Made by a program: the position numbers and the translations under genes. The notes under the pieces are model-generated. The model searched no databases and was not told the DNA's origin. It saw only the letters and a program-made list of their open reading frames with translations. Positions 2-15,936 of a DNA stretch of 16,462 nt are shown here, in pieces; position 1 is the stretch's first letter, and the number at the start of each line of letters is the position of its first letter. The stretch is from Bdellovibrionota bacterium (GTDB lineage: Bacteria > Bdellovibrionota_C > UBA2361 > JBIKWN01). The stretch is from positions 1 through 16,462 of the forward strand of contig JBIKWN010000056.1 of the NCBI GenBank assembly GCA_044356295.1. Reading direction: 5' to 3'.

Positions 2-178
2 AAAACCATCAACTTCTCTACTGCTTTCAGAGGAGAGAGCATAGCCATTGAGCCTGTCGATCGTGTAACTGTTCGTCTTTGGTTCACAGACTTTTGTTTA
101 GGTACCTGTGATAGAAATTTTAATGATAAAATTACTCCCCCAAAAATCTTGCGTAAGGACAAAATAGAAGGCTTATAA
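2..178 (+). mobile_element. C-terminal part of an IS481-family-like transposase (5' end outside the window)
   Basis: My translation of frame +2 is open from the window edge to TAA at 176-178: KTINFSTAFRGESIAIEPVDRVTVRLWFTDFCLGTCDRNFNDKITPPKILRKDKIEGL*. This resembles the IS481 C-terminal pattern (I.lS.af.Ge.vgl.evd.g.w.v.F..y.LG.iD) and is followed by an IS481-like end sequence. The catalytic DDE domain is not visible. Confidence 0.65.
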
Positions 179-187
179 TATGCTCAA

Positions 188-222
188 AAGTGTAAACCAT
201 GTATTGGCAGAGATCTGTAAAC
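188..222 (+). repeat. Putative IS481-type right-end subterminal repeats (incomplete)
   Basis: AAGTGTAAACCATGTATTGGCAGAGATCTGTAAAC: TGTAAAC occurs at 191 and 216, a 25-nt period like the tandem TGTnAnCnATGT units of IS481 ends. The second unit breaks off and no terminal ...ACA follows. Confidence 0.5.
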
Positions 223-310
223 GGTTTGAGCGCTCCGCTACGCTCACGCCTACGGTCAAGGTCACGGGGAAGAAAATCCTTAACTTAATGACATTAAGCT
301 GGCACCCCGA

Positions 311-733
311 CTAACGAGCATTCTCATACCGAGCAAGCTGAGACTTATACAGTCGATAAACCGAAGGATCCTCAGGAGGAGTAAGCTCAAACAGATCCCC
401 TAATTCCCCAAGTTCAGTTCCAGCAGCCGCAAAATCTTGCTGGGCAAAGAGCCCAATAATAAGAAATATTCGTAGTCCGATATTATCTTTATCTGTTTTA
501 AGACCCTGCTTAGCAGATTCGAGAAGCAATTCGAATTCATTATTGAAAGCATGAATATAACACCGACCCAACCACGCGAGAGTTTTGTCTGGTCGCACTG
601 CGGTAAGCCCTTTAAGAATTACTTCAGCAGTATGAAATTGACCGGATTGAATCAAATACCGGCTGATGGCATAGAATCTTTCATATTCATCTTCACCGTA
701 TATTTTTGAGAGGGAAATGTTTTCGTTGATCAT
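311..733 (-). CDS. TPR protein resembling class II T3SS (SycD/LcrH-type) chaperones
   Basis: 140 aa helical protein. EDEYERFYAISRYLIQSGQFHTAEVILKGLTAVRPDKTLAWLG matches the SycD-like TPR pattern (E.lY..ay.l.q.G....Ae..fkgL....P.....WLG). It lies at the distal end of the sct gene run. Confidence 0.6.
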   Translation of the reverse strand: MINENISLSKIYGEDEYERFYAISRYLIQSGQFHTAEVILKGLTAVRPDKTLAWLGRCYIHAFNNEFELLLESAKQGLKTDKDNIGLRIFLIIGLFAQQDFAAAGTELGELGDLFELTPPEDPSVYRLYKSQLARYENAR

Positions 734-735
734 CT

Positions 736-996
736 CTATCCTTTTTTTGTCTCAGGGATAGTAGTAGTAAATTGGAGTAATTCTCGAAGCATCGCTTCTT
801 CAAGAATTAGATTCATTTCGTGCTCCCGCTCTAGTGGTTGAGAACCACTTCTAAGGGTAAGGATTTGATCGAGACGAGAAAAAAGTACAGGGCGAGTGTT
901 TTCGATTGAAAGAGTGCTGACTTTTTCAGGAAGCAAACAAAAAAATGGTGCTATTGAAAAAGGATCAGGATGGAGGGGGGAGCGATCAGACGACAT
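736..996 (-). CDS. Small hypothetical protein
   Basis: 86 aa, ATG start, stop 2 nt before the TPR gene start. Pro/Ser-rich N-terminus and helical C-terminus (LILEEAMLRELLQF). No family recognised. Confidence 0.6.
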   Translation of the reverse strand: MSSDRSPLHPDPFSIAPFFCLLPEKVSTLSIENTRPVLFSRLDQILTLRSGSQPLEREHEMNLILEEAMLRELLQFTTTIPETKKG

Positions 997-1081
997 GGTG
1001 GTTACTTAATATTACTATCATAGGTTCTTTAGCGCAGCTAGATAGATCAAGGTCTTAGGGCGTATTTGAATATATATTTTA

Positions 1082-1151
1082 TAACGCGAAGGTCGCGAAG
1101 TACGCGAAGGGGTAAATCAGATCCTTCGCGTACTTCGTGACCTTCGCGTTA
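1082..1151. repeat. 29-bp inverted repeat (REP/MITE-like palindrome) built from CGCGAAG units
   Basis: Left arm 1082-1110 is TAACGCGAAGGTCGCGAAGTACGCGAAGG. Right arm 1123-1151 is its reverse complement with one mismatch (G1095/T1138). The loop is 12 nt. GC-rich element in an AT-rich intergenic region. Confidence 0.92.
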
Positions 1152-1206
1152 CAACTTTTTATAATTCATAACAGAGTGTCATGCCAGACTGATTATCTAA
1201 TACAAG

Positions 1207-1761
1207 CTAATGCTTAGGCCTTCCAGAAGCATATTCAAGCCTAAATAACCTTCTATCAATAAAAAAGCACAAAACTCCCTTCACAATGCTAATCCCACTC
1301 GCAATAAAAAGAAGTCTTGGGAGTAGTTTTTGAAGCGACTCGAGGGTTACCCCAGTAAGCTGAAATCCTTCTGAGATATTCCAAATAATACCAAGCAAAA
1401 TCAGAGCAGATATAAAATCAATCACACCGAAGTACATCAAACTCTTTGAGGACTGAGCATCGTCTACAATTTCAAATCGGGTATAAAATTTAGTCTGAAG
1501 AACAGTTAATGTAAATGAAAGAGCGATAATCACTGCAGTACTCGCTGCAATAAACAGAAACCATGGAATAATCATTGAAAGAATGACTTCTGATGTAAGT
1601 GCAGAGGGAAATGATATCTTCCACGGAACACCTTTAATTAAAATTGCTAGGAGTGCCATCGTAATACCACGAGCAATCGTTCGACTCGTTGCTTGAGAGA
1701 CAAAAACAATTCCTTCTTCTCGTAAACGCTCTATATCTAGCTTAGAATCTGCTGCAGTCAT
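1207..1761 (-). CDS. sctU: SctU/FlhB-like export-gate protein, transmembrane domain only
   Basis: The N-terminal ERLREEGIVFVS matches FlhB/SctU (kl.kaReeGqv.kS). About four hydrophobic segments, LQTKF (cf. lQ.Gf) after TM2 and IDRRLFR after TM4. It ends at 184 aa with no NPTH motif. Coupled to sctS by a TAATG overlap at 1759-1763. Confidence 0.65.
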   Translation of the reverse strand: MTAADSKLDIERLREEGIVFVSQATSRTIARGITMALLAILIKGVPWKISFPSALTSEVILSMIIPWFLFIAASTAVIIALSFTLTVLQTKFYTRFEIVDDAQSSKSLMYFGVIDFISALILLGIIWNISEGFQLTGVTLESLQKLLPRLLFIASGISIVKGVLCFFIDRRLFRLEYASGRPKH

Positions 1762-1997
1762 TACATTGTGCCGTTAATACACGCGACCATGAGTCCTTGA
1801 AAACTTTCAATAAGCGTTGGAAGAATAACAGTCAGGGCTAATCCTAAGCAGAGAAGCTTTACTCCGTAAATTAATGCTGATTCAGAGAGTCTAAAAAAAG
1901 ATTGTAAAATCCCAGCAATTAATCCACCAAAAACAGAGACACAAAGTAATGGAAGCGCTAATAGAATTATGATTCGAATCGACTGCTCAATTATCAT
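1761..1997 (-). CDS. sctS: SctS/FliQ-family export-gate subunit (divergent)
   Basis: LALPLLCVSVFGGLIAGILQSFFRLSESALIYGVKLL aligns with FliQ/SctS P.L......GL.isilQa.TQi.E.TL.f..K. I moved the start from 2027 to the ATG at 1997 (78 aa), which forms an ATGA overlap with the sctR stop. Confidence 0.85.
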   Translation of the reverse strand: MIIEQSIRIIILLALPLLCVSVFGGLIAGILQSFFRLSESALIYGVKLLCLGLALTVILPTLIESFQGLMVACINGTM

Positions 1998-2515
1998 CCC
2001 AATAACCTCTGTGTAATTAATGACCAACCATCAACTGACAAGAATAAAACTACTTTAAGAGGCAATGATAAAACTGAAACAGATAAGCCTTGAAAATCGA
2101 GTAATCGAAAAATGTGAAGGACCACAAGATCGATAATTAAAAATGGTATCAAAAGAAGAATTCCTGAGGTCATCCCTCTGGTTAAATCAGAGGTAATCAC
2201 CAACAAGGGAATCCGTGCTTCATGATCTTTAAATGTCTTTTCAATTTTTTGGGATACTACAGTGCCGTCTATCCTCTGCTCAAGCAAGGCTTGATACTGC
2301 CCGTTCATTGCACTCACCGGAGTCCCAGTAGCAACCTCAAATCGAATGACAGAGATATAGAACCCAAGTAAAATCGCACAAAACCCAAAGAAGATACCTC
2401 GAGCCCCCAGACCTACCATCAGAAACTGCAAAGAAATAATAGACTGAACAGCCCCACCTATAAGTATAATAGGGAGTATCGTGTCTAATGAATTAAGAGA
2501 ATGCATCCATTCCAT
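1994..2515 (-). CDS. sctR: SctR/FliP-family export-gate subunit (short, divergent)
   Basis: The C-terminal IPFLIIDLVV...LSLPLKVVLFLSVDGW is the FliP/SctR signature (iPFLiIDLVv...islPfKl.LFvlvDGW). The N-terminal half is degenerate. An in-frame stop at 2528-2530 prevents upstream extension. Confidence 0.9.
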   Translation of the reverse strand: MEWMHSLNSLDTILPIILIGGAVQSIISLQFLMVGLGARGIFFGFCAILLGFYISVIRFEVATGTPVSAMNGQYQALLEQRIDGTVVSQKIEKTFKDHEARIPLLVITSDLTRGMTSGILLLIPFLIIDLVVLHIFRLLDFQGLSVSVLSLPLKVVLFLSVDGWSLITQRLLG

Positions 2516-3023
2516 GAAGAGAGTAAATCACAGCTTTGTCTTTGCAGCGAGATACCTATTATCTTTGAGTGCCATTTTTTTCATCTCTTTTCCCCTCGTC
2601 GCTCAAAATAATCCGACCAGAGAGAACTTGGCTGAGAAATACCGTCAAGTAAATGAAGAAAGAATCTTTTTTCAAAGTAAGACAAAAAAATATATCTCGA
2701 TGGATGAATGCTATAAACACTGCCTCAGTAAGAACGCTACAGCAGCCCTGTGTGAGGATTCACTAACTCAGGTAAGGAATCAGATAGATCGTACTAATGC
2801 ATTAATTCCCGCTACCCCACTGCCCTCACCTCAACCAAATTCAGATATCTCAGTAGAGCAAAATACAACGATAGTTGTTGGGAGTTCTTATTTTTTTACA
2901 CCAGTACCAACAAGAGTCATTCCTCCGACTGCAATGCCTGTACCATCGCGAAATCAGTTTACTCCACGCCCTGGATTTACTCCTCAAAATAGATTTCAAG
3001 GTGGGGATGGATTTAATCAGTAA
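2514..3023 (+). CDS. Putative secreted protein with Cys motif and Pro/Thr-rich tail
   Basis: The ATG at 2514 gives a Sec-type signal peptide (MKR...LLSLSAIFFISFPLVA/QNN). It carries CYKHC-x9-C and PATPLPSP/PTPVPT low-complexity segments, and fills the sctQ-sctR gap almost exactly. The GTG at 2481 is less likely because it overlaps sctR further. Confidence 0.7.
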   Translation: MKRVNHSFVFAARYLLSLSAIFFISFPLVAQNNPTRENLAEKYRQVNEERIFFQSKTKKYISMDECYKHCLSKNATAALCEDSLTQVRNQIDRTNALIPATPLPSPQPNSDISVEQNTTIVVGSSYFFTPVPTRVIPPTAMPVPSRNQFTPRPGFTPQNRFQGGDGFNQ

Positions 3024-3029
3024 GAAAAA

Positions 3030-4058
3030 TTAGAGAACATTGAGCGCAAATCGATCATCATAAACACTGAGCTTACCTCGAGCGATTATCTCACCATTCA
3101 AATACATATCTACAAGATCAGATAACTTAATTCCAGTATCCCACACAGTTCCCGGAGATACATTTTCTTGAACAACAGCGCTATCAACATTAATCTTTCC
3201 GAGAACAACTGATATCCGTGTCATTCCCTCTGGTAAAATGGGTTGTACAGGATTCATTGATATAGTTTCGACAGCTAATTTACCGTCTGACTGAAACATG
3301 CGCGCCGAACCAAGGAGGCGCTCTGAAGTTCTAATAAAAATCGTATCTGATAAAGGAACTTCAAGATCAATTTTTGTATCAGGCTGAGTATACTGCACCA
3401 GATCTGCTGGTGGCACTGCAAGCTGTGCCACTTCAAAAAATACTGTCATGACTCCACTTGGAACTTGTGTTGTCGTTTTTTGAACAGGTTGATTCTGACG
3501 TTTCCACATTGCATCTAAACGCTCAACAACAGATTTTCCTAGACCAAGCCAAATCGTTGCTTCGTTACCATGAATTGTAAATGAAACTTTTACCGCACCT
3601 GCAATTGGAATACTAAATGGATCAATTCGTTTATCGAATAAAAGCTCGATAGCTTCCGAACCAACCCACGTACTTTTAAGAGTCGCTAGAATCCTTCGTG
3701 CTAAATATTCAAGTACAATATCTCTGTTTTCAGGATACGCACCTGGAACAACAACATCAATCGCCATGCGAATGGCTTCTCTATCAAAAAATAAACCGAA
3801 TGATTCATTATCAATTGAACCACCATATCCAAGTTCAAGCCCTTCGGGTACAGATCGTTCGGGGGTAACTTCCGTGACTCGTAATTCAGAAGAAAGTGAA
3901 TGAAAAAGGGGTAACCACTCTGACGCCAGTTGAGGAAACCATCTCTCGGGACGTGAGCGTAAAAAACCCTTAGCCAGTTTTAGGGCTGATAGATCAATAG
4001 GCTGCAGGCTTGTCCTCCACTGCCATACTTCAAGGATTGGTTCTTGCTGTTCCGTCAT
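3030..4058 (-). CDS. sctQ: SctQ/FliM-FliN-family C-ring (sorting platform) protein
   Basis: 342 aa with a C-terminal SPOA domain (ISVVLGKINV...PGTVWD...VDMYLNGEIIARGKLSVYDDRFALNV) and a preceding degenerate SPOA-like segment. Lies upstream of sctR. ATGA overlap with the previous gene. Confidence 0.85.
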   Translation of the reverse strand: MTEQQEPILEVWQWRTSLQPIDLSALKLAKGFLRSRPERWFPQLASEWLPLFHSLSSELRVTEVTPERSVPEGLELGYGGSIDNESFGLFFDREAIRMAIDVVVPGAYPENRDIVLEYLARRILATLKSTWVGSEAIELLFDKRIDPFSIPIAGAVKVSFTIHGNEATIWLGLGKSVVERLDAMWKRQNQPVQKTTTQVPSGVMTVFFEVAQLAVPPADLVQYTQPDTKIDLEVPLSDTIFIRTSERLLGSARMFQSDGKLAVETISMNPVQPILPEGMTRISVVLGKINVDSAVVQENVSPGTVWDTGIKLSDLVDMYLNGEIIARGKLSVYDDRFALNVL

Positions 4059-4354
4059 ACTTCTTCCATCGCTTCCTGTAACTCTACTGCACGTTCTTGC
4101 GCGCGCTCAATCCCCTTCGTGACTTCTTTGATATCATCATTGATTTTTTTAAGCTTTTTCATAAGCTCCACTCTATTTGATGCAAGATGAGCAATCTCAT
4201 GTGCAGTCATGACCCTACGAAATCCTTCAGAATGGGATTCATCGGCCAAAGAATTCTTTAGTGTTTCAAGTCGAGCAAGCTCTGTTTGTCTGCGTTGAAG
4301 CTCCGACATGACACGTTGCAACGCTTCTTGTAACTCTGAAAGGTTCTCTTCCAC
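4055..4354 (-). CDS. Coiled-coil protein, SctO/FliJ-like stalk candidate
   Basis: 99 aa, charged with heptad patterning and two long helices. Located just upstream of sctQ, close to the usual sctO position. The GTG start overlaps the upstream TAG. Confidence 0.5.
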   Translation of the reverse strand: MEENLSELQEALQRVMSELQRRQTELARLETLKNSLADESHSEGFRRVMTAHEIAHLASNRVELMKKLKKINDDIKEVTKGIERAQERAVELQEAMEEV

Positions 4355-4581
4355 TACCGAGACATCTCTTCAAGACTTTCTCTTAAAATAGTTCCAGCAA
4401 GAGGCATCCGAATCTCAGGAGCAAGCATAGCTAATGTATGCGCAGCCTCCTTAAGTGCAGCACCATACAGCTCATCGTATTGAAGATAATTTTCGGCTTC
4501 CCTTCCATCAAGTAATACTGCCACTGCAACGAGTGCGCGGTCGCGTGGAGCAAGAAGTTGAATTGTTTTCTCAATAGACAT
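4354..4581 (-). CDS. Small helical protein in the SctK/FliG position
   Basis: 75 aa directly after sctJ. LAPRDRALVAVAVLLDGREA loosely resembles the FliG N-terminal helix (ls..qkAailll.lg.e.a). The gene call is supported by tight coupling on both sides. The family is tentative. Confidence 0.5.
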   Translation of the reverse strand: MSIEKTIQLLAPRDRALVAVAVLLDGREAENYLQYDELYGAALKEAAHTLAMLAPEIRMPLAGTILRESLEEMSR

Positions 4582-4583
4582 AT

Positions 4584-5471
4584 TTAATCTCTTGTAATCT
4601 TAGGAAGTTCAACTGATCGTTTTGCTAAACGTGGAAAACTAGATACACGCTCTTGATCAAGCTCTACTCTTGTTTTCTGTAAAAAACCAAACCAGTATCC
4701 TAAAAATGCCCCAAGGCCCGCAATAAGGATTACTCCACCAAAAATAGTAAGTGAAAGAGTTGATATTTCAACCTCTGGAACATTAAAAACTCCTAAAAAA
4801 GGTACAAGGGGTAATGAGACAACAATGCCATCTTTATTTTTTACGCCCATTACATTCTTAATCGTTTTATCAACTGCATCGACTGCTGTGATCTGAACTG
4901 ATTCTGCTGATACACCAGGAACCGCTTTAAGGACCATCTGCACAATTGCGTTCTCATCGACCGTTGCACCATCAGTGCGTTTGATAATTAACGAGACACT
5001 TGGCGTACTATTTTGCCCCGTCCTTACAATCGCTCGAATTTCTTTGACAGTCGGAAGCACTCGAAGTGCTTCTTCTAACTCTGCAGCTCTTGCTCTATCA
5101 AGTCTCAGAGCTTCAATATCACGAGACGAAGGAAGAAATCCTCGTTGAGCAATTGACTCTGCAAACGTTAATTCTTCTCTTCTTGGAAGGTTATGTGCAT
5201 GCAGCAATACAATTGCTTGGGTATATTGATCACCTCTTACAGAGACAATATATCCACTTTGAGAGCCTGAGGATTTTTGAATTTTTCCTGCTATGCCTGC
5301 ATCAGCAAATAAAGAAACTATCTCTGTTGCTTGCTCTTGACTAATTCCTTCAACAACATTTTGACTGGAACAACCAGCTGAAAAAATGCAAAGAACAACA
5401 AGAGCTACTTTGAGCCAAGTCTGAGCAAGTACATGACTTACTGTGTGTGTAAAATTATCGTGCCCCAACAT
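4584..5471 (-). CDS. sctJ: SctJ (YscJ/PrgK)-family inner-membrane ring lipoprotein
   Basis: Lipobox-like FSAG-C34, then VVEGISQEQATEIVSLFADAGI, AIVLLHAHNLPR and GFLPSSRDIEALRLDRARAAELEEALRVLPTVKEIRAIV, all in YscJ motif order. C-terminal TM helix. At 295 aa it is too short for FliF. Confidence 0.9.
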   Translation of the reverse strand: MLGHDNFTHTVSHVLAQTWLKVALVVLCIFSAGCSSQNVVEGISQEQATEIVSLFADAGIAGKIQKSSGSQSGYIVSVRGDQYTQAIVLLHAHNLPRREELTFAESIAQRGFLPSSRDIEALRLDRARAAELEEALRVLPTVKEIRAIVRTGQNSTPSVSLIIKRTDGATVDENAIVQMVLKAVPGVSAESVQITAVDAVDKTIKNVMGVKNKDGIVVSLPLVPFLGVFNVPEVEISTLSLTIFGGVILIAGLGAFLGYWFGFLQKTRVELDQERVSSFPRLAKRSVELPKITRD

Positions 5472-6780
5472 TAGCGATTACCGAGACTAAAAATTCTAAG
5501 TCTCCAAATCGTACCCAGTCACCGTGCTGTAGCACAACCGTATCATATTCACGGCGATACGCTGTTGCATCACCAGTGCGAATAAAGACTCCACGGTCAC
5601 TTTTAAGATCTTGCACTAAAATGCCTGTATCATTCCCAATGGTGAACATAGCATGAGGGGTAGAGATGGTTTCATCTTCAAGAACAAGATCAGTACTGCG
5701 AAGCTGTGTGCTGCTCACGAAGAATCGACCTTCACGAAGCTCTATTGAACTTCCATTTGGATCTACATAGCTCACCAGCCACCCAAAAATCGTTCCGAGC
5801 TTTTCACCTCGTTTAATAGCATCTTTCGAACCATCACGAGCCACTGGAGCTGCTTTTGGACGCACCACTGGTGGTACTGAGTCCGACACTGAATCTTTCA
5901 TTTGTGGCTTCATATCAACCTCTTGTTCCTTAACCTTATTTACAACTTCTTGTTGTACTGCTTGTACTGGAGTAATAACTGGCTCAACTTTTGGCTCTTC
6001 AACAATTTGAGCTGGAGCTACTGGAGCCTGAACATTTTTCGGCTCAACCTTAGTTTCTTGTTTTGGTTTAGCGTCAAAACGAGACGGCGCACCAAACGAC
6101 AAGCCTTTCGAAAACTTACCCTTGCCTTGTTCAACGACAACTCTCGGTTTTGGTTGCGGAGCTGAGAAGTTTTCAACTTTTTTCTGGGCTTGAGCTAAAA
6201 CGTCTGCATTAAGCTTCGGCTCTACAATAGGAGTTTCTTCATTTTTAACTGGGAGTTCTGGATCGAGAGGTTTCGCTTGCTTTGATTCCTCTACTTTAGT
6301 TTCTTTCTGCTGATCATCTTCGTCATCGAAATCATCAAAGTCGTCGAAATCATCTAGATCATCTAAGTCATCAAGCTCTTCATCAAAATCATCGAAGTCA
6401 TCTTTTTCTTGAACAGCTGCCTCTACAGGTTCTTGCGGTTGTGATGAGGTATCTTCGGCAACAGGTGCTGCTTGTTGTACGTCGGCAGTATCATCTTCAA
6501 GAAAATCATCAAGTGGACTTTTTGGTTCTACTTCTGATTCAGGCGCATTTCCCTCATCACGAAGTTGTTGAATTTGATCATTAAAATCAGCAGCTCCAGC
6601 AGTTGTAGTTGTCTTTTGACGAACTCTACTGGTTGGTGGTGTTGGAGTAGAACCACTATCAGGTTTTAATTCTGTTCCAAGTCCAGCGCCACACATGCGA
6701 CACCGTGTCGACATTGCAGGGACAAGACTTCTGCACTCGGGACATCGAACAAAGGTTAATTCGGTTGTATCAGTTGCCAT
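5455..6780 (-). CDS. Zn-ribbon / long acidic disordered linker / C-terminal FHA-like domain protein
   Basis: N-terminal CPEC-x10-CRMC, an Asp/Glu/Pro-rich linker, and a C-terminal GWLV...DLVLEDETISTPHAMF...VQDLKSDRGVFI...LQHGDWVRFG FHA-fold pattern. Confidence 0.85.
   Translation of the reverse strand: MATDTTELTFVRCPECRSLVPAMSTRCRMCGAGLGTELKPDSGSTPTPPTSRVRQKTTTTAGAADFNDQIQQLRDEGNAPESEVEPKSPLDDFLEDDTADVQQAAPVAEDTSSQPQEPVEAAVQEKDDFDDFDEELDDLDDLDDFDDFDDFDDEDDQQKETKVEESKQAKPLDPELPVKNEETPIVEPKLNADVLAQAQKKVENFSAPQPKPRVVVEQGKGKFSKGLSFGAPSRFDAKPKQETKVEPKNVQAPVAPAQIVEEPKVEPVITPVQAVQQEVVNKVKEQEVDMKPQMKDSVSDSVPPVVRPKAAPVARDGSKDAIKRGEKLGTIFGWLVSYVDPNGSSIELREGRFFVSSTQLRSTDLVLEDETISTPHAMFTIGNDTGILVQDLKSDRGVFIRTGDATAYRREYDTVVLQHGDWVRFGDLEFLVSVIANVGAR
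6313..6402 (-). repeat. Coding 9-bp-period repeat encoding (DD[F/L])n
   Basis: Encodes DDFDDFDEELDDLDDLDDFDDFDDFDDEDD. Synonymous codons vary between units. Confidence 0.9.
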
Positions 6781-6784
6781 AAAT

Positions 6785-8158
6785 TTATCCGAACGTATGC
6801 ATCAATAAAAAACCAACGACAAGGACAAGAAAGATAGTAGCAAGTACGACGAGCGCCATAACAAGCTTTCCTTCTCTACCCGAACGTTTATACGCAACAT
6901 TAAGTGCTTGAAACGTACCAGTGGGCTTCCTTTCACGGAAACGTTCGTCAGAATCTGAGGAATCCTCAAATGATTCTTCACCATCCTGCGAAATATTATC
7001 AAGATCATCCTTCAAACTGTATCTAGGAGCCCCTAATGGCTTGATTTGGAGCCCCGATTCTGTATTTTTATTAAACGCTGTTTTGGATCCTTGCGATGCA
7101 ACAAATGACTGCTCTTGTTGTTCATTGAAACAGAGAGCAACTGTAATTCCACTACCGAAGTCAAAAACAACAGGCTCATTATTTAAGATCGAAGCTTCTC
7201 CCCGACTGAGCCTTCCAAAATCATAAAGAGTTCCATTTGTACTTTGATCAGTAGCAACAACCTGTCCTTGATCATCAAGTGCAAAGCTACAATGCATTCG
7301 TGATACGTGTGGCGCCCCAAGCCACATATCAGAAGTAGGATCGCGACCTATCTGAACTTGCCCATGCCCAACATCTGGAATCACGATTCGTGCTGGTCTG
7401 GCAACCTCAGAAACTGAAATGAGAATTGGATATCTTCGGGTACTTTGAGCACGAGTTCTTACAACACCAAGAGCAGATTTTTCTATTGAGCGTAGTTGAT
7501 GCTCAGATAAAACTCCCATGATAGTTGTATCACGACCTAAAACCATTGGAACAGCCGGAGCAACAGATACACGCCCTGATACTTGCTGATCATTTACAAA
7601 TGAACCGTTTGTAGAACCAAGATCTTCAATCCAGAATTCATTATTTTCAAAACCAATTCGAGCGTGTTGAGAACTAAGATCTGATTTTTCAATTCTTAGT
7701 AAACACTGCTTCGCTCTTCCAATATAGATTGGTTGATGTTTATCAAATGAAACAACGAGTTGTGGGTTACCTAATACAAGAACCGCTGGGAATTTAGGCT
7801 GAACAACAGTTGTTGCTTGACGAAGAATCCTGACCCCTGCTCTATCAGGTGGCTCTGTGTCTCGGATCAATAGATCTGTATCGATACATCGAATTAATAG
7901 TCCAAGATCTGCAACATTAAATTTTGCTTTAGTATCATAAAGCTCTGAAGGGTCTGATGATTTACTAGAATCATCATGAACTTTGCGTACACGAAACGAT
8001 CGCCCAAAGTCACGGGCAATTTCAAAGTGATATCCAGCCGTATGCATATCATCAATGATGACTTGGCATGCATCATCACCGCCAACAGTGGCGATGGGAC
8101 GACGAATCATCACTACCTCAGAGGTACCATCCTGAAATTGTATCTCTATCGCAAACAT
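6785..8158 (-). CDS. Multi-FHA-domain protein with C-terminal membrane anchor
   Basis: Two canonical FHA domains (IGR...SSQH...DLGSTNG and IGR...SRMH...DQSTNG), an N-terminal degenerate FHA-like segment (ATVGGDDACQVII) and a terminal hydrophobic helix (LVMALVVLATIFLVLVVGFLLM). Confidence 0.9.
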   Translation of the reverse strand: MFAIEIQFQDGTSEVVMIRRPIATVGGDDACQVIIDDMHTAGYHFEIARDFGRSFRVRKVHDDSSKSSDPSELYDTKAKFNVADLGLLIRCIDTDLLIRDTEPPDRAGVRILRQATTVVQPKFPAVLVLGNPQLVVSFDKHQPIYIGRAKQCLLRIEKSDLSSQHARIGFENNEFWIEDLGSTNGSFVNDQQVSGRVSVAPAVPMVLGRDTTIMGVLSEHQLRSIEKSALGVVRTRAQSTRRYPILISVSEVARPARIVIPDVGHGQVQIGRDPTSDMWLGAPHVSRMHCSFALDDQGQVVATDQSTNGTLYDFGRLSRGEASILNNEPVVFDFGSGITVALCFNEQQEQSFVASQGSKTAFNKNTESGLQIKPLGAPRYSLKDDLDNISQDGEESFEDSSDSDERFRERKPTGTFQALNVAYKRSGREGKLVMALVVLATIFLVLVVGFLLMHTFG

Positions 8159-8336
8159 TGAGAATTAACTACCCTATCCCCATCAAAACAACGGGGAAAA
8201 ACATTAACAGTTTGAGATTCTCTAAAAACTTGAACCTCTTCAACTGTTTCGGTATATATAATGGAGATTCTTTAATTTTTTTGTCAAAAACTGTTCTAAA
8301 TTCAGATTTAACCCTCCCAGAACCAAGGTAATTCTT
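8159..8336. promoter_or_regulatory. Divergent intergenic promoter region (FHA/sct operon versus response regulator)
   Basis: 178-bp AT-rich gap between divergent starts. Promoters are inferred from gene geometry only, and no boxes are assigned. Confidence 0.5.
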
Positions 8337-8699
8337 ATGAGCTCAAAAAAGATTCTTATAATTGATGACGACGTTACTGCTTTAGACATTGTTGACTTCC
8401 TTTTTGAGGATAAGGGTTTCGAAGTCATCCGAAGAACCGACGGGATATCTGCACTTGATTGTGTAGAGGAAGTTGCTGCAGACATAATCCTGATTGACCT
8501 CATGATGCCGCAAATGAATGGACAAGAGTGTATCAAAGAGATTCGAAATCGTGGTCTTAAAACTCCAATCGTAGCTTTTACTGCTTTGGATGATCCAGAA
8601 ATTCATAAAGAAGCAATGGACGCAGGTGCTAATTTAGTACTTACAAAACCTTGCAAGCCTTCAGTACTTGTTGGTCATATTGAAGGATTCCTGAAGTAA
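8337..8699 (+). CDS. Single-domain (CheY-like) response regulator
   Basis: ILIIDDD, the phosphoacceptor in IDLMMPQMNG, FTA and LTKP: the full receiver signature. 120 aa, no output domain. Confidence 0.95.
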   Translation: MSSKKILIIDDDVTALDIVDFLFEDKGFEVIRRTDGISALDCVEEVAADIILIDLMMPQMNGQECIKEIRNRGLKTPIVAFTALDDPEIHKEAMDAGANLVLTKPCKPSVLVGHIEGFLK

Positions 8700-8709
8700 G
8701 GCACGTATC

Positions 8710-9465
8710 CTACGTTACTTTTTCTTGAATTAATTTCGATAAAGATTCATAACATTCCAAAAAAGTTTGGTCTCCATCGATCAAACTCTTATGTAAGTTC
8801 ATGGTACCACTATCTCTTCGTGCAGCAGGACCTGTACAAAGCGAAGAAAAATCCTTTGAAAATGCAATGGGCAGTGAAGAATGTAAAAGCTGCTCAGTTA
8901 AAGCCTTAGCACTCTGTGAAGAAATATTGCACTCTTGAAAGAGGTTATAGCTCTGATTCAATAACATTGAGGTAAAGTTTGATGCGATGACAGACGCAAG
9001 GTGGTACTTCGCTTTATCTTCTGTACTAATCTGAAAACTCTTACCACCGATAAGCGTAAAAATATCATCAATAATTTTCTTCGCTTGTTCAGAACCTTCA
9101 ACAGCGAAAAGAACATCTTGGAAATTTGTATCAGCTCCAATTCTGATTGCTGGATGCATTGTAGCTCCAATCAATCCTTGCTTTTCAAAAACACTACTTG
9201 AAAAAGCACCACTACAATGAATAATTGGGATTTTCTTGATTGAAATACCGATGACATTCACAAGATTTTCAACGACAGGAGCGATTGCATCATCAGAAAC
9301 AGCCAACACGATAGCACTGCAGTTTGGGATCGATGAAACGAAAGCTTCTTCAAAACTTCTCGAATTAAATATCGCCGAATGATTTGCTCCAAGTGATCGG
9401 TGTAAAGCGGAGGCAACTTTGCCAGTTCCAACAATCGCTACAAACAGACTAGACGTAATTTCCAT
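8710..9465 (-). CDS. Rossmann-like plus DUF2520 oxidoreductase (PanG-like family)
   Basis: Motifs IVGTGKVA, LAVSDDAI, HCSGA, MHP, FAVEG, YHLASVIASNF and TGPAARRD. Confidence 0.88.
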   Translation of the reverse strand: MEITSSLFVAIVGTGKVASALHRSLGANHSAIFNSRSFEEAFVSSIPNCSAIVLAVSDDAIAPVVENLVNVIGISIKKIPIIHCSGAFSSSVFEKQGLIGATMHPAIRIGADTNFQDVLFAVEGSEQAKKIIDDIFTLIGGKSFQISTEDKAKYHLASVIASNFTSMLLNQSYNLFQECNISSQSAKALTEQLLHSSLPIAFSKDFSSLCTGPAARRDSGTMNLHKSLIDGDQTFLECYESLSKLIQEKVT

Positions 9466-10918
9466 TCTTTAAGTTTAAGCATTGATTCAAACATAGTCGA
9501 ATCGCTTTAAACCGCTGAACAGGTTCAAATCCCCCTATTTTGGTTAACTCGTCGTCTAATTCAAGGTAGAGGACCCCTGATTTCTCGTGATTTCCAATAA
9601 TCCCAGAAACTGAAGAGACTCGTTCGCCAAACATGACATTCCCATCCCTTTTAATAGGAACCTGAGATTGCAATGCTTCTAAAATGGGATTATCCGTACT
9701 GGACATAGAAGTGCTCGGTATCGATCTATATTCATCCAATGTCCTCTCACCGATCCTTAATCGCGGGACTAATTCGTTTTGTAAATTTGTAAGAAAGATA
9801 CAACCTCTTTTAAAACCGGACGCCGGAATACAATCAAGCACAAGAATTTGAAGTGCTTCTGGTGAGATCTCATTGGGTCGAACCAATGAATATACACGCA
9901 GAAGGCGTTGCTGGATATCTTCAGATACCTTTGTAGCAGCAGAGTTTTGACTAAACTGATATTCAGCAAATTTACGATTAGCTATTTCTAGATTTTTTTC
10001 AATTGAAAAGTCTGCTTCAAGACCTAGGTAAGGGAGTTCAGCATAGTTTTCAGACAGACTGAAGATCTTTGTTTGAAGTGATGACAAACCTTTTGGCCCA
10101 AGAATATCAGTAAGCTTTTGTGTGATTGATTTCCATTTCCGAGTTACGAGTGGATAGTGCTCTGGATCATTCATTTCAGCGAACGCTTCACTAAGCGTTG
10201 TAATATTTGATAATTTTTTTCCGAGAGCTGGCTGCTCAATATCTGTCTGTATTAAACCAAGAGCCATTCTGAGATCAGGAGAAGGATTGTTCAGTGTAAT
10301 CTGCGAAGCAATTTGTCGCGGTGAAAATCCTAGGCCTCTGTGTAAAACTATTTCAATATCTTCACCAGTTTCAGCGACATTTTGAAGAGCTTTCGCATAA
10401 ATTCTTGGATAATTCCACGCAACAAGAGCGAGCCCTAATTGCCTAATAACTGCAACCGAAAAAGCTAATCCAGGATCGACTCCTTCTTTAAGGGCTAATG
10501 CTTCAGCTGTAGCAGAGCTTATTAAACTATGCCGTAATCGTAATGATTGTGGTTTTAATGCACTTGTGAAAGCACCACAATGAATAAGTTCATCCATATG
10601 CGACATAATTTTGTCGAGTTCAGTGAGGGGTGCTGCTTCAAGAAGTTTCAACGGATTATCTACAAAAACTTCTTCTTCGGAAGCATATTTAAAAAGATAT
10701 GAAAGCAGTCCAATATCTTTTTTTATTTCTTCAATCAGAACACTACGATTACTTGTAAATTCTCCATCACGGATCCTTTGCTGAAGAAGTCTAACTGCTT
10801 TTTGGTTAATTGGTATCCAACCTGCAAGCAGATGATCGAGTGGTGATTTACTCTTTGTAGGAGAAGAAGGAGCGCTCCCAACTACCTTGTTTTGTAAAAT
10901 AAGCCGACGAATACTCAC
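9449..10918 (-). CDS. HDOD-like domain protein with a possible C-terminal GAF-like domain
   Basis: EEIKKDIGLLSYL, RHSLISSATAEALA, AFSVAVIRQLGLALV and LGFSPRQIA follow the HDOD pattern. The C-terminal GFKRGCIFL...GVLYLE is GAF-like. GTG start. Confidence 0.7.
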   Translation of the reverse strand: MSIRRLILQNKVVGSAPSSPTKSKSPLDHLLAGWIPINQKAVRLLQQRIRDGEFTSNRSVLIEEIKKDIGLLSYLFKYASEEEVFVDNPLKLLEAAPLTELDKIMSHMDELIHCGAFTSALKPQSLRLRHSLISSATAEALALKEGVDPGLAFSVAVIRQLGLALVAWNYPRIYAKALQNVAETGEDIEIVLHRGLGFSPRQIASQITLNNPSPDLRMALGLIQTDIEQPALGKKLSNITTLSEAFAEMNDPEHYPLVTRKWKSITQKLTDILGPKGLSSLQTKIFSLSENYAELPYLGLEADFSIEKNLEIANRKFAEYQFSQNSAATKVSEDIQQRLLRVYSLVRPNEISPEALQILVLDCIPASGFKRGCIFLTNLQNELVPRLRIGERTLDEYRSIPSTSMSSTDNPILEALQSQVPIKRDGNVMFGERVSSVSGIIGNHEKSGVLYLELDDELTKIGGFEPVQRFKAIRLCLNQCLNLKNGNYV

Positions 10919-11038
10919 GATGAAAGTATCGGGGGAAATAAGGATTTTAATGAGGGTAACTTACAGGTTAAACTTAGAAAATTTTTATTGTTTTAAAATT
11001 AGGGGAGCTAGCTACCAGATGATAAAACAATTACTTGT

Positions 11039-13078
11039 CTACTCTGCGTATTTTACGTAAGGATAAAGATATTTTCCCCATAAAAAGCTTGAAAAAGCGA
11101 TTATGAGCATCGACAGTAAAACAAGATATGGTTTTAATTTGGAAGGTTCATATGTTGCAGACACTTTATGGTTTCCCTGTGGAACCATAACTCCTATAAA
11201 TCCAGGACTTATCCATTCTTTTTTGGTTTCAATACCATCTACTTTGATATTCCAATTAGGATGAAAACCATGGGAAATAACCACGAGTTCATCTTTTATA
11301 AGTGACACTTCACTTTCAACACGCAAAGGATTCTTCTGTTGTACGGTTATTCTTGAATCTTTATCTGAAGGGATTGAATATGTTTTATAATTTGCGACCC
11401 ACGACCTCATCTCATTGGTTTGCCCTTGAAGATTTTCGGATCGAATAAAGCTGGAATCGCCAATAAACATTCGAGCAGAAGGACGACTCCATAAAGAGTA
11501 TTTCCCGCTTGCCATTACCTGCGAAAAATTAAGTGGTGCTTTCCAATCATACGGAGCGATGATTGAAGTAATACCATAGAGATTAAAGTGAGCAGGATTA
11601 TTAATATCAAAATCGAATAACGTCTCGCCTGCTAATGCAAACGCATGATACAAAATTCCACCGGCCGTCGGCATTCCTGTCTCAGTTGTAAATACATCTA
11701 AGGGAACAAACCCTGCAATTTTTAAATCAGATTGCCAGTTGTGACTTGCCCCAGTATAAATCCATCCGTAAGGCAATGTTTTTACTTTTGCTAAAACTTG
11801 TTGAAGAGCTGAATCACCATAAAATTCATTCGCTGCATATTGATGTCGTACCCAAGCAGTATCGTACATATTAGAACGTTCTACATATGCAGGTCGTAGA
11901 ATAAGAAAAATGAAAAAAAGTCCAAGCACTCCCGTTGCATATGATCGGGCGCAAAAACGAAACCCCGTTGCCAATGCATAGCCAATAAGAATGACACCAC
12001 TAAAATGAACACCAACTGCGAAACGGTGCACATGCAGATTTGCCAACACTGGCAGTGAATTCAAAAGGAATCCCCAGATCTCTCTGCCTGAACAAAGTGT
12101 GAAAAACAGAACAAAGATTACAAGAAATTTTGGTTTGAGTTTTTGTGTAAATGGCTGTGTGAGTGCTAGAGCAACACCAATAAACAACAATACCGTCAAA
12201 ACAGGGAAACGATCATTATCAAATAGCTGACCTTCAATTAAATGAGTCCATAGATATTCAAAACCACGTCCCTGATATTTCCATCTGGGCTCAAGAGCGC
12301 TTGGATTTATATAACGGGAATCTTGCAATATAAAAAACCATTGGTGCGCAGTCGCAATGAAAAGTAAAAAACCGTAGGTTAATACTCTGTATGTACGGAT
12401 TAAAATATCTTTTTTGCCGAACCCAAAAAATAACGCAGCACCAAAAAAGAAAAGAACAAATGCTGCAACAACATGACTTCCAAAGGTGCAAACACTAAAG
12501 AGGAGCGCTAATCCCAGACGCTTACCAGTAGTCATAAACTGGAAAAAATATCCTACAGCAAAAGGAAGAAACATCATTGCCCAAAGCTGTGTAAGGATAC
12601 CTGTTGTCCCAAAGGTAAAATTTTGAAGACCAAAACCATATTCACCACCATCAGATATAAGCGATGCAGCAAGGGCTGCACATGCTGCTTCAATACGTGG
12701 AATATGTAACAGACGTAAACCAAAGAAAATAAATACAGGAAATAGCGTTGTTAACAACACAGTCGTGCCAATCAGAACTTGAGCAATCGAAAAAAAACCT
12801 CCGCACAAACGATAAATTAGGTATACAAATTCATACGGCAGATATTGATATGATCGAAACAGCGCAAATCCAAATGGTGTCGATTCAAACCAAAAATCAA
12901 AGAGGCTGCCTCCATTTCGAAATGTTTGATCGAGTGTATTCAGAATCGCTAAGTGAAAAGCAGTATCACTGTACTGCACTTCGGGAAAATAGATCTCTGT
13001 TCGCATGCCCCACGCTATAGGCAACGTCGCCATCAATATGATGATAGTCGACCATATCTTCTCGAGGCGTTCGCTCAT
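11039..13078 (-). CDS. GT-C-like polytopic membrane protein (PTPS-related/YfhO-like)
   Basis: DTAFHL after the first TM, WFESTPFGFALFRSYQYLPY, many TM helices, and a YfhO-like C-terminus (FHPNWNIKVDG...FIGVMVPQGNHKVSATY) followed by a TM helix. Confidence 0.75.
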   Translation of the reverse strand: MSERLEKIWSTIIILMATLPIAWGMRTEIYFPEVQYSDTAFHLAILNTLDQTFRNGGSLFDFWFESTPFGFALFRSYQYLPYEFVYLIYRLCGGFFSIAQVLIGTTVLLTTLFPVFIFFGLRLLHIPRIEAACAALAASLISDGGEYGFGLQNFTFGTTGILTQLWAMMFLPFAVGYFFQFMTTGKRLGLALLFSVCTFGSHVVAAFVLFFFGAALFFGFGKKDILIRTYRVLTYGFLLFIATAHQWFFILQDSRYINPSALEPRWKYQGRGFEYLWTHLIEGQLFDNDRFPVLTVLLFIGVALALTQPFTQKLKPKFLVIFVLFFTLCSGREIWGFLLNSLPVLANLHVHRFAVGVHFSGVILIGYALATGFRFCARSYATGVLGLFFIFLILRPAYVERSNMYDTAWVRHQYAANEFYGDSALQQVLAKVKTLPYGWIYTGASHNWQSDLKIAGFVPLDVFTTETGMPTAGGILYHAFALAGETLFDFDINNPAHFNLYGITSIIAPYDWKAPLNFSQVMASGKYSLWSRPSARMFIGDSSFIRSENLQGQTNEMRSWVANYKTYSIPSDKDSRITVQQKNPLRVESEVSLIKDELVVISHGFHPNWNIKVDGIETKKEWISPGFIGVMVPQGNHKVSATYEPSKLKPYLVLLSMLIIAFSSFLWGKYLYPYVKYAE

Positions 13079-13090
13079 TGCGAGTTGTTA

Positions 13091-13657
13091 TTAAAATTTG
13101 AATTCAGCAGCGAGTCGCGGAATCATTTCGCTTTTAGGGGCTATTTCTTTCAAAGACTGAAAGTACTCTTTAGCTTCTTCATGTTTACCTTGACGCTCAA
13201 GAACCCTTACTAAACGCTCCCATCCAATAGCTTGTTCAGGAGCAACGCGAATACACTCCATCCAATGGTCTTCTGCTCCTTTAAGATCTCCCTTTGCCTG
13301 TGAGATTTCACCAGCATTAAATCGAGCAGCCCACGTAACTGATTTTAGCTCAGGAAACATGGACTTATAGTTATCTAATGCCTGATCCATTAACCCTCGT
13401 TGCTGTGCTCCCCACCCTAAAAGAAATCGTGCTCTTAGATTTTTAGGATCAAGAGCAACTTCACGTTGAGTAATATCCATTGCATGTTTTAATTGCTCAG
13501 CATTCCCTTTTGCCTCGTCAATTAATTTACTGGCAGTATTAAGTGGTGTTGTTTCAAAGGTTTCAGGACGCTTTGCAAAGTAGGTTCCAAAAAAAGTACC
13601 AAGGAATATGGCTACAATAACAAAAAAAGCAATTTGATTTTTATTCATAGAATTCAT
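13091..13657 (-). CDS. Membrane-anchored TPR protein
   Basis: N-terminal hydrophobic helix followed by TPR motifs (ALDPKNLRARFLLG, ARFNAGEI...GDLKGAE, APEQAIGWERL...GKHEEAKEYF). Confidence 0.85.
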   Translation of the reverse strand: MNSMNKNQIAFFVIVAIFLGTFFGTYFAKRPETFETTPLNTASKLIDEAKGNAEQLKHAMDITQREVALDPKNLRARFLLGWGAQQRGLMDQALDNYKSMFPELKSVTWAARFNAGEISQAKGDLKGAEDHWMECIRVAPEQAIGWERLVRVLERQGKHEEAKEYFQSLKEIAPKSEMIPRLAAEFKF

Positions 13658-13668
13658 CCATTCACTAA

Positions 13669-15936
13669 CTATTTAATAATTATTATTCCCATACCATTAT
13701 TGAGTCGAAGGAGTGGTTGCACCCCGATACTCTTCCCTATCTCATCAATATTGAGTAGAGGGAAAAGCATTTTTTCTTTTTCGCCAAATACTAAATGGGT
13801 GACTCCGTAGCTGGTAAGAGCTTGGCGATTAATATTGATGAGCAAAGAATTTTTTGCAAGTACGGCTTCCATAAAACCTTTAAACGCTTGAAGATAGCCG
13901 CCAAGTTTGTTCTCGACCCGAAGACCTTTAAAACCTGCTTGTTGTAGCGGGCTATTATATAACATTGCGTGTCTTGCCCAGCCGCAGATACCTATCCTTC
14001 CCGAGAAAGCTGCGATTCGACCTGACCAACCAAAATCGACTGGGACTTCCTGCATTCCCAGCCCACACGCTTCACCAATAACAAGTTGCTGATCATAGGG
14101 TAGGTTTCGCAAGAAATTTGCGAGGTATGAATCAGCCGGATATCGTAAATTAAATTCTGAAAACCCGTTTAAGGTCTGAGTTTGCCTTGCGCGAATTGAA
14201 CGATTTTGAAATCCAGGTGCGTGCGAGATGAAAAACGAGCAGATTACTAACGCCCCAATCAAAAGTGAAAATATTTTTATTTTTCTCTGACCAAGAAGAG
14301 TACTTACTGAAAGGGCAACAGCAAATGGAATTAAAATATATCCCTCTGGCCAAAATCGAAGTGACATTTGAAACCGTATCCATTCGACTCGAGAGTCCAT
14401 CTTATGATCGAATGCTATTACTTCGGGCATGAGCCAAATAAAAAAACTTGTTGCTGCGAATAAAGATAATACCGATTGTCTATCTTTTGGGTCATAGCCA
14501 TCCGATGAGAACGTCATAAACAAAGTAGATGCACAAAGAATCATTACCATTAACGCAGGACGCCCATATATCACCGATAAAGCAGCCAGAATAAATGTTA
14601 AAACCCATATCCATTCAGCAGCTTTTATTTTTTGAACTAATGTTTTCACCCGCCCCTTCTCTAAAAGAACAAGAGTTAAAGCTAAACAGAAAACTACAAG
14701 GACAGAGAGATTGAGATTAAGGAAAGGTAAAAGCTTACTAACGATCTCTCTGCTTGGAACAACGAATTTTACTTCGCCAGAAGGCAAATAAAGCTGTCCA
14801 GCAAAAACGATTGCAACGAGTGACGCATACGAAGCATTACTAAATAAACGCTTTAAAAGTTGAAACTCTCTGCAAGATACAATCCAACCAAGATAAAGAA
14901 TAACAAAACCACCAATGCTACAAAGATTAACGAGCAAACTTCCAGGGTGGCTAATTAAAAGTGCAGCAAGCAGTGCACCGACAATTGACGAACCAATAAT
15001 CGTTATTCGTTCATAGAGAACTAACGAAAGGAATGCTCCCCAAAAAAGTACCTGCAAGAAGTAAGCTTGAAAATATGCGTGATTGTCTCCGATCATCAGC
15101 AACCAGGCTGGATATTGATTATCAGTATACGGGATCACCTGACTACTTAAAGTCCACCAATTAACTTCATCGCCAGTAAAGAATCCTTTTATACCCATCC
15201 AAAACGCTTGAAAGTGTGTGCCTACAACAGTGATGGAAGCAGTAAAAATCGCAATGCATCGAATCGTAAATTGCTCTTTAGCAAACCTTCCAAACCAAAT
15301 AATCCAGGCTGCAATCAAAGATGCATACAACGCGGTATAAAAACTCTCAGAAAACAAAAAGAAAAACCCACCAGTATCTGCATTACCAAACCAAGCCCTT
15401 GCTAAAAATGACCAGACTCCAGGAAATGATTTTAAGAACGCATAGTACCGAATTGGCTCTCCTGAAAGCCAAACCCACTCAGGAGGATAACTTTTACCGT
15501 ATAGAAACGATTGTTGCATCGAAAGGTTAAATAGTTTTTCAACACCGACATCATCACCGTTATTGAGGAAGTTTACGAATGGATAATGTGAGCGTATCCA
15601 AAGGCAAAGGAGTAAAACAGTAGCAAGTAAAATCCATGGAACTATTTGTGAGAAAGATAACGTCGAAGGTCTCTCAGTTTTTTCAATTAGTGAGCTATCA
15701 AGGGAAACTGATCGAGTAGCCCAAAAAACAAAAAAAGCGCCAAATATAAAAGAGAGTGAATAGGAACAACCAAGACTGGCAAAGAAGGCAAAAAGAATCT
15801 GCTGTAGGGTAAACGAAAAAGTAAATGTAAGTAGCGTTGGAAACTGCGAATTTTGTAGTCTAATAATTCTGCAACAAAGAATTGGTACAGCAAAATACGC
15901 TATTAAAGAACCTATGATTGCTAGATAAAATCCCAT
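13669..15936 (-). CDS. DUF2298 (YYY-type) polytopic membrane protein, putative GT-C glycosyltransferase
   Basis: EKLFNLSM...YPPEWVWLSGEPIRYYAF (cf. EKfmd...fPP.DpW.aG..inYYYfG), WWTLSSQVIP, GDNHAY (cf. GDLHaH) and GRIAAFSGRIGICGWARH (cf. grvsa.TGlptvlGW.gHe). Confidence 0.8.
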   Translation of the reverse strand: MGFYLAIIGSLIAYFAVPILCCRIIRLQNSQFPTLLTFTFSFTLQQILFAFFASLGCSYSLSFIFGAFFVFWATRSVSLDSSLIEKTERPSTLSFSQIVPWILLATVLLLCLWIRSHYPFVNFLNNGDDVGVEKLFNLSMQQSFLYGKSYPPEWVWLSGEPIRYYAFLKSFPGVWSFLARAWFGNADTGGFFFLFSESFYTALYASLIAAWIIWFGRFAKEQFTIRCIAIFTASITVVGTHFQAFWMGIKGFFTGDEVNWWTLSSQVIPYTDNQYPAWLLMIGDNHAYFQAYFLQVLFWGAFLSLVLYERITIIGSSIVGALLAALLISHPGSLLVNLCSIGGFVILYLGWIVSCREFQLLKRLFSNASYASLVAIVFAGQLYLPSGEVKFVVPSREIVSKLLPFLNLNLSVLVVFCLALTLVLLEKGRVKTLVQKIKAAEWIWVLTFILAALSVIYGRPALMVMILCASTLFMTFSSDGYDPKDRQSVLSLFAATSFFIWLMPEVIAFDHKMDSRVEWIRFQMSLRFWPEGYILIPFAVALSVSTLLGQRKIKIFSLLIGALVICSFFISHAPGFQNRSIRARQTQTLNGFSEFNLRYPADSYLANFLRNLPYDQQLVIGEACGLGMQEVPVDFGWSGRIAAFSGRIGICGWARHAMLYNSPLQQAGFKGLRVENKLGGYLQAFKGFMEAVLAKNSLLININRQALTSYGVTHLVFGEKEKMLFPLLNIDEIGKSIGVQPLLRLNNGMGIIIIK

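Follow-up and report, generated by a model that had tools for sequence, protein, structure and literature searches.

A needle-less, T3SS-derived gene set with FHA proteins and its link to Tad-like genes in an uncultured Bdellovibrionota lineage

A 16,462-nt contig of an uncultured Bdellovibrionota bacterium (JBIKWN010000056.1; the whole of it is called the window hereafter) carries, between positions 311 and 8158, a run of eleven minus-strand open reading frames (ORFs) that begins with two FHA proteins, continues with relatives of type III secretion system (T3SS) proteins, and ends with a TPR protein. Judged by gene order in related genomes, an ancestral cluster came apart within the taxonomic order of this bacterium, and the run is one of its halves; the other has Tad-like pilus genes directly before an SctV gene. 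We think it rather probable that the cluster encodes a phosphothreonine (pThr)-gated, needle-less, T3SS-like export gate that works with a Tad-like pilus. A first-pass annotation, made from the sequence of the window alone, had described the run as a minimal and self-contained machine. Its observation is confirmed and its interpretation is partly supported, with too narrow a scope: the window is one entire contig holding half of the cluster, SctV lies beside TadC on another contig (C100), and the genome also has an SctN-type ATPase (on C38) and a second T3SS-like set (on C71 and C18).

The window is the complete contig C94 of its genome (G000), which has 2.96 Mb in 128 contigs, is 93.6% complete and has a GC content of 38.6%, in agreement with the AT-rich, non-myxococcal host that had been suspected. 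We label the contigs of this genome with C-numbers and related genomes with other G-numbers, of which G002 is the congener. The lineage survey covers 110 genomes of the phylum that are at least 80% complete, all labelled as belonging to the same order or the same class as the source genome.

Gene content and conservation of the locus

All eleven ORFs are open and lie where the first-pass annotation had placed them, and most are identified by Pfam or NCBIfam. The gene at the SctD position (6785..8158) encodes a 457-aa triple-FHA protein, matched twice by FHA (106 bits) and by Yop-YscD_cpl. It has one hydrophobic stretch, at residues 427-457, and in 29/29 orthologues only 0-11 residues follow the most hydrophobic 19-mer, so that the protein is tail-anchored and has no periplasmic part. 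In its third FHA domain the motif GR..SxxH..NG is invariant in the 29 orthologues; in the second, the R is present in 26 of them, the S in 23, the H in 27 and the N in 26. The best solved relatives of this protein are pThr-binding FHA proteins, not SctD, and a profile search with the FHA alignment returns four orthologues among its best 80 matches, the rest being generic FHA proteins. The second gene (5455..6780) encodes a 441-aa protein with a zinc ribbon (N-terminal CxxC..CxxC), an acidic linker and a C-terminal FHA domain (32 bits, residues 361-426), and has orthologues in 16/16 loci of the same order.

The next genes belong to the ring and platform families of T3SSs. An SctJ-type inner-membrane ring lipoprotein of 295 aa (4584..5471; YscJ_FliF, 43 bits) has a lipobox-like SAGC and a hydrophobic C-terminal stretch, and scores 74 bits against the NCBIfam SctJ model TIGR02544, under the cut-off of 162. 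It is followed by s75 (4354..4581), a lineage-specific 75-aa protein, and by s99 (4055..4354), a short coiled coil of 99 aa in the SctO/FliJ position. The label O-like that s99 had received holds by way of its relatives, since among 20 positional orthologues ten match FliJ, four match YscO-like and one matches YscO; the window's own copy has no family match. SctQ (3030..4058; FliMN_C) is a cytoplasmic ring protein of 342 aa with two SpoA domains, in which the best solved relative, YscQ-C 3uep (E 8.6e-5), aligns at positions 200-271 and FliN at 279-340. Its Atlas feature score to Myxococcota FliMN_C/SepQ_C clusters is 0.89, a possible lead to orthology with the Myxococcus genes; the few members of the Atlas cluster that carry a label are Bdellovibrionota.

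Three genes represent the export gate. SctR (1994..2515, 173 aa) is divergent and matches FliP with 54 bits at profile positions 123-191 only; its orthologues in relatives score 112-128 bits across the entire FliP profile. SctS (1761..2027; Bac_export_3, 33 bits) has 88 aa when read from a TTG, and probably starts at the ATG overlapping the SctR stop, which gives 78 aa. SctU (1207..1761, 184 aa) is found with a hidden Markov model (HMM) of the relatives' SctU membrane domain (E 1.9e-8, covering positions 9-203 of 218) and has no match in the Pfam and NCBIfam libraries. The window protein is the membrane domain only, and the C-terminal autocleavage (switch) domain is not found in it; the relatives' SctU likewise matches Bac_export_2 at positions 2-218 of 335. 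After the gate genes come s86 (736..996, 86 aa), which has no family match and shows conserved P..LLP and EE.ML..vL.WL motifs in an alignment of 15 orthologues, and a TPR protein of 140 aa (311..733; 16 orthologues aligned) that matches TPR_19 and TPR_14 under the Pfam cut-offs and is a candidate chaperone. From its position, s86 may be the client of this TPR protein. The start/stop overlaps noted in the first pass are all present: TAGTG between s75 and s99, ATGA between s99 and SctQ, ATGA between the SctR stop and the internal ATG of SctS, and TAATG between SctS and SctU.

Upstream of the run, on the plus strand, lies a divergent gene (8337..8699) that had been taken for a regulator. The divergent gene is real; its product is a single-domain CheY-like receiver of 120 aa (Response_reg, 92 bits) in which Pfam finds no DNA-binding domain. 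Its orthologue adjoins the FHA gene in 16/16 same-order loci, with identities of 45-89%.

The locus is kept nearly everywhere in the lineage. In the 16 same-order loci the receiver, both FHA genes, SctJ and SctQ occur together, and s75 is found by BLAST in 15. An orthologue of SctJ has a match in 39/41 related genomes, and a word-index search with SctJ finds only 12 proteins. With an SctQ profile as marker, we find the set in 87/91 genomes of the order (55/55 of those of high quality) and in 105/110 genomes of the lineage (71/73), and the listed SctQ matches contain no in-frame stops. Compared with the congener, the proportion of nonsynonymous differences (pN) is 0.13-0.34 and that of synonymous differences (pS) about 0.7, and pN is far under pS in every gene compared. 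The corresponding rate ratio (dN/dS) is 0.07-0.23 over the ten locus genes with a computable dS (for SctJ and the receiver dS is saturated and cannot be computed), and because of saturation these ratios are rough. The locus is under purifying selection and decay is excluded, as the first-pass annotation had argued from the intact frames. Two genomes of another family, G091 and G092 (L172 and L171; 1.2 and 1.8 Mb), have the receiver followed by triple-FHA, FHA, s75 and SctQ genes, with no SctJ match between FHA and s75.

Link to SctV, Tad genes and phosphothreonine signalling

On contig C100 of the same genome, the gene order is TadZ-TadA-TadB-TadC-SctV followed by a HEAT-repeat gene. The order TadZ-(Flp, RcpC)-TadA-TadB-TadC-SctV-HEAT is kept in this genome and in 5/5 relatives examined. 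In other orders of the class, the two contigs correspond to a single run, TadC-SctV-HEAT-tripleFHA-FHA-SctJ-s75-(SctO)-SctQ-SctR-SctS-(T position)-SctU membrane domain-s86-TPR. In 10/14 loci from other orders the triple-FHA gene comes immediately after the HEAT gene, and the four of these loci that reach far enough show TadC immediately before SctV. When the positions of profile matches are compared by hand, 15/23 sister-order genomes that have both HEAT and SctQ carry the two on a single contig with 4-8 kb between them, and so do 4/82 genomes of the same order. The four same-order genomes with joined halves are all from family f2, represented here by five genomes. In two other genomes the halves are on one contig and far apart, with 1.4 Mb between HEAT and SctQ on the single contig of G040 and 66 kb in G011. 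Loci of other orders run from the Tad genes, SctV and HEAT into a window-type operon; the window is thus half of a cluster that was ancestrally whole and broke in two within its order. The tie to Tad and Kil genes, drawn by analogy in the first-pass annotation, is here one of physical synteny.

By the same reasoning from gene order, the SctV on C100 is the cognate of the window set. In keeping with this, G040 has the window-type set and the C100-type SctV, with no SctR or SctV of the C71/C18 type found. This SctV is full-length (FHIPEP positions 1-653 of 657) and scores higher as injectisome SctV than as FlhA, both against NCBIfam models (497 vs 466 bits) and against solved structures (349 vs 295 bits). 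The gate of the set thus consists of SctR, SctS and the SctU membrane domain in the window and SctV on C100, and is incomplete, as it has no SctT. The PF01311 matches in the genome are on C128 and C71 only. In ten relatives a membrane protein of about 200 aa is encoded between SctS and SctU, at the T position; this gene is in neither the window nor G002, and its HMM finds nothing in the source genome. Loss of SctT is a feature of this genus.

Genes of pThr signalling accompany the cluster. In G040, G015 and G010, genes for a PP2C phosphatase, an FHA protein and a Ser/Thr kinase (STK) lie upstream of TadZ, and in G022 the FHA and STK genes are seen. The source genome has the PP2C-FHA-STK trio in the same order on a 4.5-kb contig, C36. 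The HEAT protein has a weak Pkinase match in 14/16 orthologues, and we read it as a pseudokinase because its consensus, judged by eye, has no DFG aspartate. In the congener, a kinase-receiver fusion gene follows the TPR gene; its orthologue, 81% identical, is on a 3.4-kb contig of the source genome (C91), flanked by the repeat found at the window's end. Together with the conserved FHA motifs, the PP2C-FHA-STK genes before TadZ in relatives tie the set to pThr signalling, in line with the earlier suggestion.

The genome contains three sets of T3SS-family genes according to family searches. The flagellar set, on C128 and C67, scores high (FlhA 865 bits, FliP 238, FliF 214); G020 and G022 have the window-type set, and no flagellar-type FlhA or FliP match is found in them. 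The third set is divided over two contigs. C71 (about 59-9786) encodes a 98-aa SctI-like protein (weak, E 4.9e-4), a 239-aa ORF, SctR, SctS, SctT and the SctU membrane domain, followed by a GAF/PAS histidine kinase of 1074 aa, a free-standing FlhB C-terminal piece of 82 aa and an FHA protein of 318 aa. C18 (about 52243-57224) has a sigma factor, SctJ, two small ORFs, a 620-aa SctV and a TPR protein. This C71/C18 gene order is kept in G015, G020 and G022, and the set is not found in G040. An SctN-type ATPase is encoded on C38 (7830-9738; 401 bits vs a cut-off of 605), next to murJ and preceded by a 207-aa ORF that is possibly SctL-like; the murJ neighbourhood recurs in G015. The absences that the first-pass annotation listed hold in the window, and do not extend to the genome for SctV (C100) and SctN (C38). 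A FliI/SctN-type ATPase is found in 96/110 genomes; those where none is found include the near-complete G022, G033, G024, G004 and G113. G040, a single 2.28-Mb contig of 82% completeness, has flagellar FlhA and FliP yet no FliI/SctN-type ATPase was found in it, and its best TIGR01026 match, at 217 bits, is at the level of F1-ATPases.

Neither a needle gene nor a secretin for this set is found in the 93.6%-complete genome, in line with the needle-less and secretin-less machine described in the first pass, as was an SctD-like protein with no periplasmic part. The only two PF00263 matches in the genome are PilQ (with PilMNO) and GspD (with type II secretion genes), so that no T3SS or Tad secretin is found, and the best genomic match of the needle (SctF) family PF09392 has 15.6 bits (E 0.05), under the cut-off of 29.4. 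All Sct matches are under the NCBIfam equivalog cut-offs. The set shares with injectisomes the SctJ lipoprotein ring and the tandem SpoA domains of SctQ, and it is not an injectisome by its parts, having no secretin, needle, periplasmic SctD, SctU switch domain or SctT.

Proposed mechanism, alternatives and known systems

In the mechanism that we propose, the window would provide half of a composite machine, namely its membrane ring, platform and gate; the machine would be a core trait of the uncultured lineage. SctR, SctS, the switch-less SctU and the C100 SctV would form a T3SS-derived export gate in the inner membrane, with an SctJ ring around it and SctQ pods and an SctO-like stalk beneath, and the SctD ring would be replaced by the tail-anchored protein with its three cytoplasmic FHA domains. 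Marks of pThr would be written by the Ser/Thr kinase of the cluster, removed by its PP2C phosphatase, and read by the triple-FHA protein, the second FHA protein and the pseudokinase/HEAT scaffold. The CheY-like receiver and, in this genus, the kinase-receiver fusion may provide a second signalling input. The gate would be built and used jointly with the Tad-like pilus motor (TadZ/A/B/C, Flp, RcpC) of the ancestral cluster. Upon activation, probably at a cell contact, TPR-chaperoned proteins would cross the inner membrane and be released by the pilus or along it, and by analogy with Myxococcus the machine may have a role in predation. It is possible, and we put it forward tentatively, that the Tad-like and the T3SS-derived parts make up one hybrid envelope nanomachine, in which the Tad pilus delivers the cargo that the pThr-gated gate has loaded. 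If so, this would be a distinct secretion-system architecture, and the cluster would be a genetic blueprint of the myxobacterial Kil/T3SS* partnership.

Several observations weigh against an export gate that works with the pilus. The SctT of the window-type set is not found in the source genome, and the gene at the T position in relatives cannot be recognised as SctT. The window SctR covers just the C-terminal third of the FliP profile, and the SctO-like gene is missing in 8/30 loci. No FliI/SctN-type ATPase is found in 14/110 genomes, all of which have the SctQ marker. The outer-membrane route is unexplained, because no Tad secretin is found and only PilQ and GspD are present. Finally, that C36 adjoins C100 and that C94 adjoins C91 is inferred, for this 128-contig bin, from relatives.

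The main alternative is a pThr-controlled membrane scaffold or positional landmark that no longer exports anything and instead recruits the motor of the Tad-like pilus or gates it. The loss of SctT in the genus and of the SctU switch domain across the lineage, the 14 genomes with no ATPase found, the missing needle and secretin and a cluster so dense in signalling domains are all what such a scaffold would lead one to expect. We nevertheless hold it to be unlikely, since SctR, SctS, the SctU membrane domain and a full-length SctV are kept lineage-wide under purifying selection, which is hard to explain other than by a working channel, and since the gate genes are followed by a TPR gene and a small partner gene, like the chaperone-client pairs of T3SSs. 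The window could also be a piece of one dispersed, ordinary injectisome, with SctT, SctI, SctN, SctL and the outer parts supplied from C71, C18 and C38. Those contigs do offer many of the pieces: an SctI-like protein (weak), SctR, SctS, SctT, SctU parts and an FHA protein on C71, SctJ, SctV and a TPR protein on C18, and the SctN-type ATPase on C38. But J, R, S, U and V each occur twice outside the flagellar set, and there are therefore two systems, not one; in G040 the window-type set and its SctV are present without R and V of the C71/C18 type; and the genome has no secretins other than PilQ and GspD and no needle match above 15.6 bits. A dispersed injectisome is accordingly quite improbable to us. 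As for the idea that the locus is what decay has left of a flagellar or injectisome cluster, the weak family scores of SctR, SctJ and SctS, the plus-strand ORF that separates SctQ from SctR in this genus and the missing SctT might suggest it. We reject it and leave it hardly any weight, given frames that are open, a marker present in 71/73 high-quality genomes with stop-free listed matches, pN well below pS in every gene, and translational coupling that is kept.

The closest parallel to an export gate working with a pilus comes from the prey-killing machinery of Myxococcus xanthus, where the Kil/Tad system and a needle-less T3SS* co-localise and are mutually dependent according to passages of PMC12075869 and PMC10433427. 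The T3SS* (mxan_2434-2464), which acts with Kil, is described there as having, like the set studied here, inner-membrane and cytoplasmic T3SS parts without secretin, needle or translocon (PMC10433427). Further shared features are TPR/LcrH-type chaperone genes, a Tad-like partner and an enrichment of FHA proteins near Tad genes (PMC10433427, PMC12075869 and PMC8460266). A passage of a 2025 review states that Kil/T3SS* co-occurrence "appears restricted to the Cystobacterinae" (PMC12428579), and a 2024 paper extends it to Bradymonabacteria (PMC11509652). Unlike in Myxococcus, where the loci are separate, here the T3SS-like and Tad-like genes are contiguous in 19 genomes, with SctV right after TadC. 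Our set is further reduced and also differs in its SctD without a periplasmic part, its SctU without a C-terminal domain, a cluster without SctN and SctL, its SctT that is unrecognisable or absent, and its host, which is of another lineage with 38.6% GC. The likeness is one of gene content. In the open-access literature searched, we find no prior description of the joined T3SS-like/Tad arrangement. How Kil and T3SS* cooperate in Myxococcus is an open question; here both gene sets form one cluster in a different uncultured lineage, along with kinase, phosphatase, FHA and pseudokinase genes, and almost all genomes retain them. The cluster provides independent genetic evidence for T3SS-like and Tad-like systems as a functional unit; it suggests that pThr signalling is the switch, and gives structural studies a far shorter list of parts to work with.

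Control of secretion by threonine phosphorylation is known from the type VI secretion system (T6SS), with Fha1/TagH, PpkA and PppA, and from chlamydial CdsD, which has true FHA domains. As in those systems, FHA proteins with intact motifs are encoded here with a Ser/Thr kinase and a PP2C phosphatase beside a secretion apparatus; unlike in them, the FHA domains are membrane-anchored at the SctD position and triplicated, and there is a pseudokinase/HEAT protein in addition. The T6SS parallel has been drawn for Kil in a passage of PMC8460266. Compared with canonical injectisomes (Ysc and Inv-Mxi-Spa), the set has SctJ, a two-SpoA SctQ, an SctO-like protein, SctR, SctS, the SctU membrane domain and an SctV nearer by score to injectisome SctV than to FlhA; unlike them, it has no SctC, SctF, periplasmic SctD, SctU autocleavage domain or translocators and no recognisable SctP or SctK. 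With the genome's own flagellar export apparatus it shares the FliP/Q, FlhB, FlhA and FliF families, and that apparatus is a separate, high-scoring paralogous set.

Small proteins, inserted ORF and flanks

The 75-aa protein s75 had been labelled K/FliG-like, and this label is not supported. Its model has four helices (predicted local distance difference test, pLDDT, 95.5), and its family has 132 representatives at E of at most 1e-3 among 1.84 billion proteins. A profile search of solved chains gives nothing below E 0.23, and Foldseek has no match at E of at most 0.001, with the FliFc:FliGn structure 5tdy_D at rank 26 (E 5.8). The best VIA-wide Z is 5.8, which is not a clear match to any structural relative. 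The T-position gene of relatives was compared with SctT and cannot be recognised as one: hhalign against an SctT/FliR alignment gives a probability of 0.14%, the model has a pLDDT of 77, Foldseek has no match, and the best VIA-wide Z, 7.9, is to generic helical hairpins.

Between SctQ and SctR, a 180-aa ORF with a signal-peptide-like start lies on the plus strand (2481-3023). It has a homologue in the congener only (51% identity), and elsewhere SctR comes directly after SctQ. The left boundary of the run, where the first-pass annotation had seen an insertion sequence (IS) remnant, is a contig end in a dispersed repeat (124..295, no strand assigned) with 96-98% matches on C91 and at the C46 end. 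No Pfam family matches the ORF at 2-178, and the IS label is unverified. This repeat is the likely cause of the assembly break at the window's left end. A 56-bp part of it (240-295) is on at least eight further contigs with 80-96% identity, and its copies frequently form closely spaced inverted pairs (for example on C50, C57, C12 and C107), so that it resembles a small repeat of the repetitive extragenic palindrome (REP) or miniature inverted-repeat transposable element (MITE) type.

The right flank (8710-16461) is unrelated to the system and encodes a DUF2520 protein, a 489-aa ORF, YfhO-like and DUF2298 membrane proteins and a TPR protein. It is kept in the congener only; its place in other relatives is taken by genes for small FHA proteins, RNase G, GAF proteins and MreB. 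The window stretch is found again in lake-water metagenomes, one of them from a study other than its possible source.

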